From: an uncultured Actinomycetes bacterium
Lineage (GTDB): Bacteria; Actinomycetota; UBA4738; HRBIN12
Assembly: GCA_963727185.1 (NCBI GenBank)
Contig: CAVSFP010000006.1
Coordinates: 259,135-323,134, forward strand
Length of the DNA: 64,000 nucleotides
Direction of reading: 5' to 3'
Below the pieces are notes generated by a model. That model ran no database searches, was not told the DNA's origin, and was given only the letters and a program-made list of their open reading frames with translations. The position numbers and the translations under genes are program-made. Shown one piece after another: positions 7,716 to 17,932 of this stretch; the first letter of the stretch is position 1; every line of letters starts with the position of its first letter.

Positions 7716-9023
7716 TCAGGGGTTGGTGGCTACGAGGTCGCCCCCGATCGGCACGGACGCGTTGATGCTGTTGTCCACGACCACCATCTCCCAAGGGTAG
7801 TCCGTGCCCGGCTTCCACTGCACGCCGACGGGGTTCACGATGCCGATCCCCGGGAACGGCCCCTTGGTGAAGTCCAGCGGTCCGGACATCCCTTCGTAGC
7901 TGACCTTCTGGAGCTCGGCGGCGACCGCTTGCTTGTCGTGGGGATCGCTCGATGCGGTCAGCGCGACCTGCGCCACCTCGAACAACGAGTACGTCGATCC
8001 GAGCGTCTGCAGCCACTGGTTGCCGGAGTCGCTCTGGTACGCGTTGGCCAGATCCTGCGTGGTCTCACCCGTCAGCGACGAGGTGTACGGCATGGTCGGC
8101 CCCCACCACTGGTCGGTGGCGATGTTGTTCACCAGGTCGCCGAGCGCCTCGGTGTCCGCTGGGAACAGGAGCACCTTCGCCACGGTGGCGAGCTTCGGCT
8201 TGTAACCCTGCTGCGCCGCTTGCTTCCAGAACGTGTTGAAGTCCGGAGGGAGCGGGGCGTTGATGAACACCTGGCAGTCCTTGCTCTTGAACTTCGAGAT
8301 CATCGAGCTGTAGTCGGTCGTGCCGTCCGTGTACGCGCCGCCGTCCACCCACTGGTAGCCCGCGTCCTTGATGATCGCCGGCCACGCGTCGCGGAACGCG
8401 TTCCCGTCCGGGTCGTTCGGGAACATGCCGCCGACGACCTTGTTCGTGTCGATCCGGTTCCACATCGGCACGAAGCAGCCGCCGAACGCCTCGACCCCGA
8501 AGAAGTACATCGTCGTGAACTTGAACGGGACCGGGTTGGCCGGGTCGGCCTGCCGGCCGAAGAACCACGCCTGCCACGGCACGACCGTCGACACGCACGG
8601 CACCCCCTGCGTCTCGCACACGGTGGCGACGGGGTTGGTCGTCTCCGGCGTGGAGCTCGTGACGATGAGGTCGGCGTGGTCCTGCAGGATCAGCTCGCGG
8701 GCGACCTGCCGACGCGCGGTTCGGGTCAGACTGCTGTCCTTCACGAGGATGTCGACCGCTGTACGTCTTGCTGCCCGACCTTGAACCCTTCTTGTACGCG
8801 TCGGTCGCGCGGATCTGATCGACGACGAAGTTGTCGCCTGACGCGAATCCGGCGAGCGGCCGGTCTGGGGGCTCACGAAGCCGATCACGATCTTGTCGGT
8901 GCTCGACGTGCCCGGAGCCCTTGACCTTGGTTCGAGCACGCCTGCGAGGAGGCCGCCCGCGCCCACGGCGAGCGCGCCGACGCCCGAGCTCCCTTCAGCA
9001 GCGACCGCCGCGAGAGGGTCCAT
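7716..9023 (-). pseudogene. LivK-like periplasmic substrate-binding lipoprotein; N-terminal ~90 codons scrambled by several compensating 1-nt indels
   Basis: Track ORF 7716..9149, ATG at 9023. It reads cleanly from DILVKDSS to the C-terminus. Between ~8757 and ~9010 the sensible reading (LSRRSLLKG Tat motif, LLAGC lipobox, KIVIGFVSPQTGPLAGFASGDNFVVDQIRATDAYKKG) needs several single-base corrections that cancel out. Confidence 0.78.
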
Positions 9024-9164
9024 CGAGCAGCGGTGTCTCACGTTCCGGGCCGTTCTCCATCTTGACTCCCCCCTCGCCTCCGTGCGTTGGGCCGCGCCTC
9101 GCTGATGTTCGGCTAGCGCACATTCATGCGAGTAGCGAAACTCAAACATGCCGAGGTTCGGGCG

Positions 9165-10055
9165 TCAACACAGTTGGGGGTTCGGGTTCACGGCGTCAGC
9201 GACGAACGCCGGTGTCGCGTGCGAGCCCTGCGCCTTGAGGTCGGCTTCGATCTGCGCGGCCGTGGCCAGCAAGGAGGGGGAGTACCTCTTGCCGCGCCGG
9301 CGCCGACGCTCACCCGTGTGGCGATACGACGAGCACGTTCATCGCGGCGATGACCGTTCCGCCGGCGTCGCGGAACGGGCACGGCCACCGATCGGAACAC
9401 CCTCCTCGACCTCCTGGTCGACGAGCGCGTACCCCTTCGCGCGGATGTCGTCGAGGAGCGCACGGAGCTGTTCCGCATCGGTGACCGTGCGGTCGGTCAG
9501 CCGGTCCAGTTGCGCGTCGCCAGGAACGCGTCGAGCTCGGCCTGGGTGAGGTGTGCGAGCAGCACGCGTCCCTTGGAGCTCGCGTGCGCGGGGAAGCGCG
9601 TGCCGACCGGCACCGACGACGGTCATGATGCGCTTCGGCCGGGACGCGCACGATGTCGACCATGTCCTGTCCGTCGAGGACCGACGATCGACGACGACTC
9701 CTGGACCTGCGCGACCAACGTCCTCGACGTGCGGTGCCGCGACGTCCGGCAGCCGCATGCCCGACAGGTAGGAGTACCCGAGCTCGAGCACACGCGGTCC
9801 GGAGGAGAACTCGCTGCCGTTGGTGCGTACGTAGCCGAGGGCGACCAGCGTCAGGAGGAACCGTCGCGCGGCGGCGCGGGTCAGCCCGGTCTCGCGGGCG
9901 ACCTCGGAGAGCGTCAGGCGATCGTGCTCCGGTCCGAACGCACGGATCACCGCGAGCCCACGGTCGAGCGACTGCACGAACTCGCTGCTCTTGCGACCGG
10001 CGGCGGCCTGCGCTCCGGGCGCGGCGCGCTTCTCTGGCGTTCCCACGGCGCTCAA
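9165..10055 (-). pseudogene. IclR-family regulator (PcaR/PobR-like), multiple frameshifts
   Basis: The N-terminal HTH reads well (VQSLDRGLAVIRAFGPEHDRLTLSEVARETGLTRAAARRFLLTLVALGYV). The remainder (LVAQVQESSSIV, VLDGQDMV, LDRLTDRTVTDAEQLRALLDDIRAKGYALVDQEVEEGV, GTVIAAMNV, LLATAAQIEADLKAQG) is spread over all three minus frames. Confidence 0.75.
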
Positions 10056-10243
10056 CGTAGCCGAGGGTCGTCACGTCGTCGAGCGGTCGGTCAGGCGAGA
10101 GCTCCGCTTGACAGTCGGCGGTATCGTCCGGCAGAGTCGGTTCGGCCCTCGCATGGATGTTTGACATGCGAACGCCGGAGGTCGAAGCCCCATTCAAGGT
10201 CGACCGACATCCGTTGCGGCGCAAGAGAAGGGGAGGCAGAGCG

Positions 10244-15276: not shown

Positions 15277-16676
15277 GCCGGGTCACGGTGCGCCCGGGCT
15301 CCGCTGTGCGCGCGAGCGCCCGGTCCACGAACAGGCCGGCCGCCCGACGGCCCCGGCGGGCTCTAGCAGTTCGGCGATCCTCTGCCGCCGCGAGGTGCTG
15401 CGGCACTTCGGGGGCGACGGCGAGCGCGTCGGCGAACGAGATCGCACCGGTCACTCGTCGGCCGCCGCGGCTTGACGAGGTCGTTCGCCGCGCGCCGGCC
15501 GAGGGCCGGCGTCAGGGCGCGTCGCGACCCGCTCTGCCAGCACGAGGCCCCCCGTCCGGTCGAGGTTCGCGCGCATCGCCTCGACGTCGACCTCGAGGTG
15601 CTCGAGGCAATCGCGGAGCCAGGCGGCGGCGGAGCCGATCGTCGTCAGGAGCTCGCGAGAGCGGCTCCACTCCGCGTGCCATGCGCCGGCGGCGCGCTCG
15701 TGCTCCTGGATCATCGACGGCGAGCAGCTCCGCGACGAGTGCCCGGCGCCCGCATGCGCGCACGCGTCGCCGCTCACGGCCGCGACGGGATTGCGCTTGT
15801 GCGGCATCGTCGACGAACCGCCGCGCCCCGGCACCCCCTCGCGCACCTCGTCGACCTCGGTCTGCGCCAGCAGCACGACGTCCGTCGCCGCCTTGCCGAT
15901 CGCGCCCGCCGGCGACGCCGAGGGCGCCGGCCATCTCCGCCGACGCGTGTTCGGTCGGTGTGCCACGGCGATCACCGGCTCGGCGAGCCGAGCTCTTCGG
16001 CGAACGCGCGCAGCACGGACGGGCCCGTCGGCGCCGAGCAAGGCGAGCGTGCCGACGGCGCCGCCGAGCTGTACCGCGAGCCGCTCGCGTCGGACGGCCT
16101 CGCAGGCGATCGCGCGCCTCGTCGAGCGCCGTCGGTCCAGACCGGCCGCCTTGAACCCGAACGTGATCGGGAGCGCGTGTTGCAGGAGGGTTCGGCCGGC
16201 CATCAACGTGCGCGATGGTCGTTCGCTCATCACGGCGGCCGTCTCCGCGGCGGCGCGCGAGATCGTCGAGCCAGCGGACGCGAGCGCTCGCTCGACCACC
16301 AGCATCGCCGCGGAGTCGAGGACGTCCTGACTCGTCGCGCCGAGATGCACCGAGGTCGGCGGCGGCCGGGTCCTCCGGCGCTCCTCGATCGCGTCGAACG
16401 AGCGGCACGACCGGGTTCCCGCTCCGCGCCGCCGTCCCGGCCGATCGCTTCGAGTCGAAGTTCTCGGCGACGCGCACGCCCGCGCGATCGACTCCGCTCT
16501 CTGCGCGATCCATCGTCCCGGCACGACGCTGCGGCCCGCGCGAGCGCGGCCTCGACGTCGAGCATCGCCTGGAGCCACGCGCGTCGCTCGACCTCGTCGC
16601 GGACGTCGCCGCGCGCGAGCACGCCGTCGAAGAGCCCGCTCTGCGCGGGTTCAGACTGCGAAGAAGACGGTTTCAC
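15273..16676 (-). pseudogene. pcaB: 3-carboxy-cis,cis-muconate cycloisomerase, multiple frameshifts
   Basis: Fumarate-lyase family fragments: LGATSQDVLDSAAMLV, MAGRTLLQHALPITFGFKAAG, GGSSTMPHKRNPV, AWHAEW, GLFVDRAL. The GTG at 16676 is tentative. Confidence 0.8.
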
Positions 16677-17210
16677 GTTCCCCCTGGAGACGGATGTCGA
16701 ACCGGTACCCGTCGTCGGTCGGTCGGCGATCAGCGTGGACCTGCGGCCGGCGTCGGACACCTGCGACAGCACGGGATCGCTCGCGTTCGGGTCCGGCTCG
16801 TCGGCGAAGTAGATCCGCGTGACGACGCGCTTCAGCAGGCCGCGCGCGAACACGGACACGTCGATGTGCGGGGCCTGCGGGCGATCGGTCCGGGTCGCCG
16901 GCACCACGCCGGGCTTCATCGTGAGGATGCCGTAGCGACCGTCGGCGTCGGCGCTCGAACGGCCGAACCCGCGGAACCCCGCGACGGCGCCTCGCGGATC
17001 GTCCGGATGATCGAAGCGACCGTCGGGGTCCGCCTGCCAGGTCTCGACCATCGCGTCGGGCATCGGCGCGCCGTCGCCGTCCAGCACCGACCGCGGATCC
17101 AGATCGCGCCCGGCGTGCCCTCGGGGACCACGTACGGCCCGTCCGGCCACGGCGAGCCCGATCGCGAAGAACGGGCCGATCGTCTGCGACGGCGTGCGCG
17201 GCGACGTCAC
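16651..17210 (-). pseudogene. pcaG: protocatechuate 3,4-dioxygenase alpha subunit, frameshifted
   Basis: GTG at 17210 overlaps the pcaH stop (GTGA). Fragments: [78 protein letters not shown]. Confidence 0.8.
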
Positions 17211-17932
17211 GCGTCGTCGTCCTCGCTCTCCAGCGGCGTGGCTCCACCGCTCCCGAGGACGATGTCCCACCGGAACGCCAAGCGCCCATTCCGGGACCGT
17301 CTCGGTGTGGTCGTAGCGGGAGATGAGGCGCTCGCGCACCTTCGGGTCCGGGATCGAGTTGAAGATCGGGTCGAGCGGGAACAGCGGATCGTCGGGGAAG
17401 TACATCTGCGTGATCAGTCGTTGGCGCGAAGTTGCGCCCGAACATCGAGAAATGGATGTGCGCCGGGCGCCAGGCGTTCGCGTGGTTCTTCCACGGATAC
17501 GCGCCGGGCTTGATCGTCACGAACCGGTACCGACCTTCGTCGTCGGTCAGCGCGCGTCCGGCTCCGGTGAAGTTCGGGTCGAGCGGCGCGGGGTGGGAAT
17601 CCTGCGGGTGGGCGTACCTGCCCGCCCGCGTTCGCCTGCCAGACCTCGACGAGCGTGTTCCGCACCGGCCGGCCGTCGCCCTCGAGCACGCGGCCGTGCA
17701 CGATGATCCGCTGGCCCTGCGGCTCGTCCGCATGCTGGCGCGTGAGATCGTGATCGAGCTCGCCGACCCGTCCCTCGCCCAACAGCGGCCCCGTCGTCTC
17801 CGTCAGCGATCGCGGCAGCGTCACGAGCGCGCGGGCGGGCGCGCGCAGGATGGTGGACCGGTACGCGGGGTGGAGGTAGGGAGGATCGACCACGGCGTCG
17901 TCGTCCGAACCTGGAGCGGACCCATCGGGCAC
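17207..17932 (-). pseudogene. pcaH: protocatechuate 3,4-dioxygenase beta subunit; N-terminal third intact, rest frameshifted
   Basis: Track ORF 17414..17932 is clean to EVWQANAGG. An extra G near 17621-17623 breaks the frame. The continuation ([58 protein letters not shown]) lies in other frames. Confidence 0.85.

Follow-up and report, generated by a model that had tools for sequence, protein, structure and literature searches.

Can a whole gene cluster lose its reading frames at once, or does such a stretch say more about the assembly than about the organism? The question is raised by part of a 64,000-nt stretch (here, the window) from a metagenome-assembled genome (MAG) of an uncultured Actinomycetes bacterium, where one gene after another changes frame repeatedly. 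The initial annotation took this to be either unpolished, low-coverage consensus or a very recent inactivation of an aromatic degradation branch. In a 5-way MAFFT alignment of the window with four syntenic loci of the same genus (L002, L003, L004, and L005, from G010, G005, G007, and G011, respectively), we counted 146 window-specific indel events over positions 5499-21004, some of which could shift with the placement of gaps by MAFFT. Nearly all of them (139) fall in 8708-17620, compared with 1 in the 5′ flank (3.2 kb) and 6 in the 3′ flank (3.4 kb), and these 139 are missing from every one of the four relatives covering each site. A frameshift-dense block does exist, almost exactly where the initial annotation had put it. 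Within its 8.9 kb, 133 of the 139 events are not a multiple of 3 and so shift the frame, 112 are 1 nt long, and successive events lie a median of 32 nt apart (mean, 67.5 nt; maximum, 635 nt). GC at third codon positions gives a clean frame signal at 4360-8560 and again at 18040-19720; at ~8680-17560, this signal is blurred and hops.

As had been noted, the frameshifting runs through many neighboring genes, but their number is ten rather than nine (Table 1), and what was taken for a pcaL fusion corresponds in the relatives to two separate genes, pcaD (273 aa) and pcaC (129-130 aa), which overlap by 4 nt. Comparison with orthologous loci, which the initial annotation had proposed, found that only the window has the indels and that all ten genes are whole and stop-free in G005; Pfam domains of the protocatechuate branch (pobA, pcaHG, pcaB, pcaC, pcaD, and the IclR regulator) are all present in these intact proteins. 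In the window, each gene can be read only by hopping between frames, in pieces mostly 60-100% identical to the G005 proteins in ungapped tblastn. Gapped tblastn was uninformative and was abandoned, as its alignments ran across the frame changes, which the scarcity of stops at 70% GC permits. Both borders of the block fall within genes. On the left, the C-terminal 347 aa of the binding protein (7719-8759) are in a single frame and 95% identical to G005, whereas the N-terminal ~116 aa (8708-9060) contain 9 frameshifting events. On the right, the last event is an extra G at 17620 in pcaH, and the N-terminal part of that gene (17576-17932) is in a single frame.

Table 1. Coordinates of the block and of the genes that it disrupts. 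Domains and protein lengths are those of G005 or other relatives; substrates and enzyme activities of the pob/pca genes are predicted from family names only.
Feature	Position	Strand	Domains, family, or length	Indel events
Indel-dense, chimeric consensus block (probable)	8708..17620	.		Indels, allele mosaic, both-allele insertions
Periplasmic binding-protein gene	7716..9060	-	Peripla_BP_6 in G005 ortholog	
IclR-family regulator gene	9196..10055	-	IclR_C + HTH_IclR in G005	12 frameshifting
Aldehyde dehydrogenase gene	10161..11708	+	Aldedh	7 frameshifting
pobA-like 4-hydroxybenzoate hydroxylase gene	11731..12923	+	FAD_binding_3; 390 aa in relatives	18 frameshifting
MetE-like gene	12942..14071	+	Meth_synt_2; 368 aa in relatives	20, of which 18 frameshifting
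pcaC	14084..14469	-	CMD family	3
pcaD	14466..15286	-	Alpha/beta hydrolase, Abhydrolase_1 in G005	27, of which 26 frameshifting
pcaB	15283..16712	-	Lyase_1 + ADSL_C	31 frameshifting
pcaG, alpha subunit	16651..17210	-	Dioxygenase_C	4, of which 3 frameshifting
pcaH	17207..17932	-	Dioxygenase_C + PCDO_beta_N	4, of which 3 frameshifting

It is tempting to see here a real and recent inactivation, which would have turned the protocatechuate branch into fresh pseudogenes and would fit with all ten genes having been struck at once. Deletion bias is expected of bacterial pseudogene decay, and the excess in this block runs against it: there are 108 insertions versus 31 deletions, a net gain of 87 nt, and no large deletions among the block indels in the alignment with the relatives. 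Nonsense codons, which the initial annotation had also failed to see, are absent, with 0 stops in the 3,180 codons that we read in ortholog register across the block. Private mismatches are at the level of the flanks, since mismatches at sites where all three references agree make up 1.0-4.9% in the block versus 1.4-3.3% in the flanks.

The other suggested reading is a plain unpolished or low-coverage long-read consensus, in which the sequence of one population would carry random, uncorrected base-calling errors, in homopolymers or otherwise. The preponderance of 1-nt events and the scatter of blocks over the assembly (see below) agree with this, and frameshifting indels are known from long-read MAGs, at least from portions of two reports (PMC9262707, PMC8302730). 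The errors themselves do not fit. Only 28 of the 112 single-base events adjoin an identical base, a lower share than for the bases of the block in general (37%), and 65 of the 88 single-base insertions have no adjoining identical base in the window. The examples cited in the initial annotation are reproduced in the alignment with relatives (the additional bases at positions 10965 and 10978, and the G at 17620), but its generalization that bases are gained or lost next to an identical base does not hold. The level of private mismatches, which is not raised, also speaks against random error.

C predominates among the inserted bases (46 C, 24 G, 14 T, and 4 A), and the fragments are protein-like and lack stops, two features in keeping with programmed recoding or RNA-level editing that would restore the frames. 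We give this explanation practically no credence. The extra bases are absent from all four same-genus relatives and from the more distant locus L029, they share no common motif, they affect both strands, and so many events in a block with intragenic borders are unlike any recoding system.

What, then, determines where the indels lie? The sites that matter are those at which two lineages differ. Among 75 single-base insertions, 63 adjoin a polymorphic site (background, 0.46), and 50 carry the other lineage's allele of that adjacent site, so that both alleles stand side by side. Random places and random bases would yield 11.4 ± 3.1 such insertions (maximum of 23 in 2000 trials), and random bases at the same places would yield 22.6 ± 3.4 (maximum of 35); the other 25 insertions lie outside this pattern. 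Polymorphic columns also hold 12 of the 15 single-base deletions (background, 0.28). This tie to inter-lineage sites is at odds with errors made at random in a single population.

At the level of the alignment, 8708-17620 is demonstrably a per-site blend of two lineages' alleles, one being its own (G005/G010-like) and the other the more distant one of L029, held by the MAG G031, which serves only as a proxy for the second population. We defined informative sites as those where G005 and G010 agree and L029 differs, and scored the share of L029 bases per bin. The flanks have a share of 2-9%. Within the block, it is 6-36% at 8.5-13.5 kb and 47% at 13.5 kb, reaches 82% at 14.0-14.5 kb, and falls through 50-62% at 14.5-16 kb, 29% at 16.0-16.5 kb, and 13-19% at 16.5-17.5 kb back to 7% at 17.5 kb. 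The mosaic, found inside the block only, is a fine one, with 296 L029-like runs of which the longest is 116 nt. Private mismatches are at flank level, and therefore the excess divergence of the block represents borrowed alleles and not noise. The codon positions of window-specific substitutions look uniform in the block, which we first took as a sign of random error; we dropped this argument, as these substitutions are mostly borrowed L029-like alleles. The blend is most lopsided in pcaC, where the consensus in the 14000-14499 bin is almost purely that of the second lineage: an 85-aa fragment (14215-14469) is 95% identical to P0002, a protein encoded in L029, and 70.6% identical to G005. The 95% matches of this fragment are real 128-aa proteins in other assemblies, one of them encoded in L029. 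With divergence that is so largely L029-like, we regard uncorrected errors in one population as improbable; the initial annotation was right that the block is an artefact in kind but not about its cause, given that the indels follow two-lineage sites rather than random or homopolymer errors.

Could the foreign alleles be real? In one version of the inactivation reading, the pseudogenes would follow a recombination import from an L029-like donor, which could in principle supply the L029-like alleles. The foreign-like runs are nonetheless far finer than recombination tracts, and import cannot put both alleles of one site next to each other. We consider real inactivation, in this or any other version, somewhat less probable even than uncorrected error. 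Harder still to credit is a variant in which the indels are real and an L029-like import was resolved by patchy, error-prone heteroduplex repair, which would have to leave hundreds of patches and ~130 frameshifts, and to do so at several loci.

Instead, comparison of the sequences makes it very probable that the block arose as an artefact when the MAG was assembled or polished, i.e., that it is a chimeric consensus of two co-occurring related populations and no real feature, because private mismatches are at flank level and the indels coincide with differences between the lineages. Wherever a substitution between the populations went in as an insertion and its counterpart deletion did not, the two alleles are adjacent (+1 nt); where both alleles were dropped at a differing site, a base is missing (-1 nt). 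Such unmatched insertions and deletions produce about one frameshift per 67 nt without creating stop codons. The blend may go back to a draft path that crossed a read from the second population and later received incomplete correction, or to polishing that drew in reads from that population. In 500-nt bins along the block, divergence between the two lineages is 20-36%, with the partner 64-80% identical here; this divergence exceeds what long-read assemblers are usually said to collapse, which counts against a blend.

If the consensus is blended here, is it blended elsewhere? With a codon-phase HMM, we flagged 16 segments ≥2 kb long in the assembly, which add up to 71.5 kb. We compared five of these candidates, the present block among them, with relatives, and all three of the other segments that were comparable proved insertion-rich (C11 ~103-116 kb, C6 ~428-434 kb, and C6 ~74.5-83 kb): their single-coverage bins have 9-24 insertion events per kb, and most flank bins have 0-2. 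Another flagged segment, C8:1-13000, has no orthologue in G005, G010, G007, or G011. The both-allele test was run outside the main block on the C6 ~75-kb block, one of these three loci, and it counted 24 both-allele insertions among 65 versus 6.8 ± 2.5 expected; the G031-like allele share there climbs from 0.02-0.07 to 0.10-0.27. For the C6 ~428-kb block, the corresponding increase is from 0.01-0.07 to mostly 0.11-0.19, a modest signal, and the C11 block has no orthologue in G031. The recurrence of the indel signature at three other loci, with the both-allele pattern at the one tested, joins the insertion excess, the lack of stops, the intragenic borders, and the fine mosaic in arguing against the recent inactivation that the initial annotation had entertained. 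We also noted that 13 of the 16 candidates have a slightly higher GC content than their own flanks and considered GC-driven short-read dropout as a cause, but the higher GC does not count as evidence because G and C make up most of the inserted bases.

A search of public sequencing runs for the words of window positions 3500-13499 found none with at least half of them, the best share being 0.12. Contigs from four of the public runs (X1, X2, X6, and X7), compared at 85% likeness, are short and come from other relatives. Among the 32 contig pieces listed of 12,371, 11 of 14 outside the block align without gaps, and 17 of 18 inside it have at least one gap. Contigs of other relatives lack the inserted base at 10978, 11884, 11888, 12742, 12951, 13650, and 12561 (listed as 12560). 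These contigs repeat the comparison with relatives and say nothing about the source DNA. Two unpublished genomes, G009 and G023, bear on none of our conclusions.

For the organism, there is no need to postulate inactivation by an indel-prone process. Its real genome most likely has the pobA-pcaHGBDC cluster intact, as its relatives do, and the predicted 4-hydroxybenzoate/protocatechuate degradation would most likely be working, as it is expected to be in them. For users of the assembly, the block is a warning about data quality: in this species-representative MAG, the number of two-population blocks is at least four and may be ~16, together ~70 kb or ~2% of the assembly. Genes in such blocks will be called pseudogenes, will lower completeness estimates, and can mislead metabolic reconstructions, readings of a "decaying island" or of pseudogenes, and analyses of selection or recombination. 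The both-allele signature, combined with a codon-phase scan, allows blended blocks to be recognized without reads, from the consensus and a few relatives.

How does such a block compare with known systems? It resembles bacterial pseudogene decay in reductive genome evolution in that many neighboring genes are frameshifted. Decay is expected to bring a deletion bias, stop codons, larger deletions, and a gene-by-gene scatter, and the block shows none of these. It also resembles the residual homopolymer indels of Nanopore and PacBio assemblies, as presented in part of one report (PMC9262707), in that the frameshifts are a data-quality artefact and relatives are intact, but its indels are insertion-biased, clustered, placed at inter-lineage sites, and of homopolymer type in only 28 of 112 cases. 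In a limited search of the literature on long-read metagenome assembly artefacts, as represented by portions of the sources, we found no description of the both-allele insertion signature. Another relative is strain collapse, for which part of the Strainberry report (PMC8302730) describes how strain-oblivious long-read assemblers (Flye and Canu) produce one collapsed consensus from ~98-99% identical strains across whole genomes. The likeness lies in one consensus that stands for more than one population, matches no real genome, and contains ORF-breaking indels. Unlike the strain collapse described there, the blend in this MAG occupies only blocks 2-13 kb long, its partner has just 64-80% identity in this region, and the two alleles of a site stand side by side as insertions.

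The block of dense frameshifts at window positions 8708-17620 is confirmed by comparison with relatives. The window spans C6:259135-323134 of its source assembly, G000. The source assembly (3.88 Mb in 24 contigs, 68% GC, estimated completeness 85.8%) and 30 relatives, 31 genomes in all, were searched at the DNA level, and the whole region is syntenic in four genomes of the same genus: G010 (locus L002) and G005 (L003), both at 88% identity, and G007 (L004) and G011 (L005), both at 82%. In GC content by codon phase, one phase prevails for long distances at 4360-8560 and 18040-19720, but the signal is blurred from ~8680 to 17560, where the phase changes every one or two 240-nt windows. 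In a five-way MAFFT alignment, there are 168, 153, 150, and 103 indel events against the individual relatives, nearly all at 8-18 kb. Window-specific events, those shared with none of the relatives present at the site, number 146 over 5499-21004, and 139 of these are inside the block. The 5′ flank has one, at 6182 (intergenic), and the 3′ flank, where only two relatives are available, has six, in gene ends or spacers. When ten G005 proteins were used as ungapped tblastn queries, every gene was readable in the window only via frame changes (pobA in 13 pieces, pcaD and pcaB in 10 each), and the 3,180 block codons in the orthologue's register contained no stop.

These indel counts, the frame hopping, and the lack of stops bear out the initial annotation, which had described frameshifted genes free of in-frame nonsense codons inside conserved stretches, with three corrections. 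Ten genes are affected rather than nine; the supposed pcaL is two separate genes, pcaD and pcaC, in the relatives. Single-base changes are indeed common (112/139, with 133/139 events not multiples of three), but gains and losses are unbalanced, with 108 insertions against 31 deletions and a net +87 nt. Finally, the changes were said to adjoin an identical base, which holds for only 28 of the 112 single-base events, versus a background of 37%. Pfam searches of the intact G005 orthologues identified the binding protein (Peripla_BP_6), the IclR regulator, the aldehyde dehydrogenase, a pobA-like hydroxylase (FAD_binding_3), a Meth_synt_2 protein, pcaC (CMD), pcaD (alpha/beta hydrolase), pcaB (Lyase_1/ADSL_C), and pcaG and pcaH (both Dioxygenase_C). 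The pathway assignment is a prediction drawn from the names of these families and the order of the genes.

The relatives contain errors as well. Compared with G005, G010 carries several of its own indels in this gene cluster, and its ORFs for the binding protein, pobA, and the metE-like gene are short. Its sequence also skips from window 19988 to 28755, and the missing ~8.8 kb is either a gene-content difference or an assembly join; G005 is colinear with the window to at least 21004. At locus L010, 13-15 deletion-type events/kb are clustered at 1-2 kb and 4-5 kb, in G005 or the window, and similar blocks may exist in other metagenome-assembled genomes of the genus.

It was tempting to read the block as random long-read error, as its window-specific substitutions are evenly spread over codon positions, whereas those of the flanks fall mostly at third positions. 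However, part of pcaC (14215-14469) keeps a clean frame for 85 codons at only 70.6% identity to G005, and at sites conserved across three or more relatives, mismatch reaches ~20% at 14-15.5 kb. Plain unpolished error is very unlikely. In a protein search, the pcaC fragment is 95% identical to real 128-amino-acid proteins, one of them encoded in L029, an actinobacterial metagenome-assembled contig of genome G031 with synteny to the window over 4320-17904. L029 is more distant, at 72-79% identity to the window and G005 alike in the 5′ flank. Within the block, the window shifts toward L029 and away from G005, reaching 93.5% identity to L029 versus 73.2% to G005 at 14.0-14.5 kb. The share of L029 alleles, at sites where G005 and G010 agree and L029 differs, varies accordingly (see table), and mismatches at positions shared by all three references remain within 1.0-4.9%, as in the flanks. 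The two allele types are interleaved nearly site by site, with 296 L029-like runs in 8.9 kb (median span 1 nt, longest 116 nt).

Features of the frameshifted block and of other flagged segments in the source assembly (G000; C, contig)
Location	Feature	Observation
Window, flanks	L029-like share	2-9%
Window, 8.5-13.5 kb	L029-like share	6-36%
Window, 13.5 kb	L029-like share	47%
Window, 14.0-14.5 kb	L029-like share	82%
Window, 14.5-16 kb	L029-like share	50-62%
Window, 16.0-16.5 kb	L029-like share	29%
Window, 16.5-17.5 kb	L029-like share	13-19%
Window, 17.5 kb	L029-like share	7%
G000:C11:~103,700-116,300	Outside window	Insertion-rich frameshift signature vs G005/G010
G000:C6:~427,800-433,900	Outside window	Insertion-rich frameshift signature vs G005/G010
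G000:C6:~74,500-83,000	Outside window	Insertion-rich frameshift signature vs G005/G010
C3, C8 (four), C9, C11:179.6-185.1 kb, C18, C19, C23 (three)	Remaining 12 codon-phase candidates	Flagged by the HMM; C8:4441-9600 without an orthologue in the relatives searched

The insertions themselves point to two lineages. Among the block insertions, 87 are missing in G005, G010, and L029 alike, and 75 of these are single-base. In 50 of the 75, the extra base matches the allele that the other lineage has at the adjacent polymorphic site, so that both alleles stand side by side. Controls gave 11.4 ± 3.1 (maximum 23 in 2000 trials) for random places and bases and 22.6 ± 3.4 (maximum 35) for true places with random bases. 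Of the 75 insertions, 63 lie next to a polymorphic site (background 0.46), and of the 15 single-base deletions, 12 hit a polymorphic column (background 0.28). Genuine recombination picks one allele or the other and cannot write both; a real recombinant, or the real decay that the initial annotation had offered, is slightly less probable than plain error, and recoding is scarcely credible. The frameshifted block is not real biology, and we are highly confident that it is a chimeric, mixed-population consensus. A consensus builder fed two diverged read sets could have written both alleles side by side, or a draft from one population may have been corrected with reads of another; a both-allele insertion would result if, of the two halves of a substitution, the insertion were accepted but the deletion were not.

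Is the block unique? A six-state codon-phase HMM run over all contigs flagged 16 stretches, each 2 kb or longer and together 71.5 kb, in which the phase switches densely; only 3.3 kb of the block is among them, so the scan is conservative. Four other candidates were compared with relatives. Three have 9-24 insertion events/kb and few deletions (in bins covered once), with most flanking bins at 0-2; for the fourth (C8:4441-9600), no orthologue of C8:1-13000 was found in the four genomes searched. With G031 as the second-lineage proxy, the G031-like share climbs from 0.02-0.07 to 0.10-0.27 within the C6 ~75-kb block, in the stretch holding most insertions, and 24/65 single-base insertions are both-allele (expected 6.8 ± 2.5). 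In the C6 ~428-kb block the share rises modestly, from 0.01-0.07 to mostly 0.11-0.19, and the C11 ~103-116 kb block has no orthologue in G031. Because the signature recurs at other loci, the phenomenon belongs to the assembly rather than to the beta-ketoadipate genes. In G031, the flanks of the ~75-kb block lie ~125 nt apart on its contig C12 and the block homologue is on its contig C6; the blended stretch begins about where colinearity with G031 changes. Separately, window 53447-57796 (~4.35 kb) is lacking in G005 and G010, where its flanks are separated by only 222-444 nt. The closest match to this segment is G031:C5 (72-76% identity). Codon phase switches densely along the segment, with three or more changes of frame relative to G031 proteins, and it may represent a genuine insertion, a further chimeric patch, or the two combined.

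Among the sequencing runs searched, the highest share of words sampled from the window was 0.12. Contigs from four public runs are short, belong to other relatives (at most 90-95% likeness), and do not contain several of the extra bases seen in the window; they repeat the relatives' evidence and are not independent proof. Neither the both-allele signature nor blending with so divergent a partner is described in the available portions of PMC8302730 and PMC9262707. Those portions do report that proteins in Nanopore metagenome-assembled genomes are truncated through mainly homopolymer-derived indels (PMC9262707), that indels lead to frameshifts and missing marker genes, and that strain-oblivious long-read assemblers merge similar strains into consensus contigs (PMC8302730).
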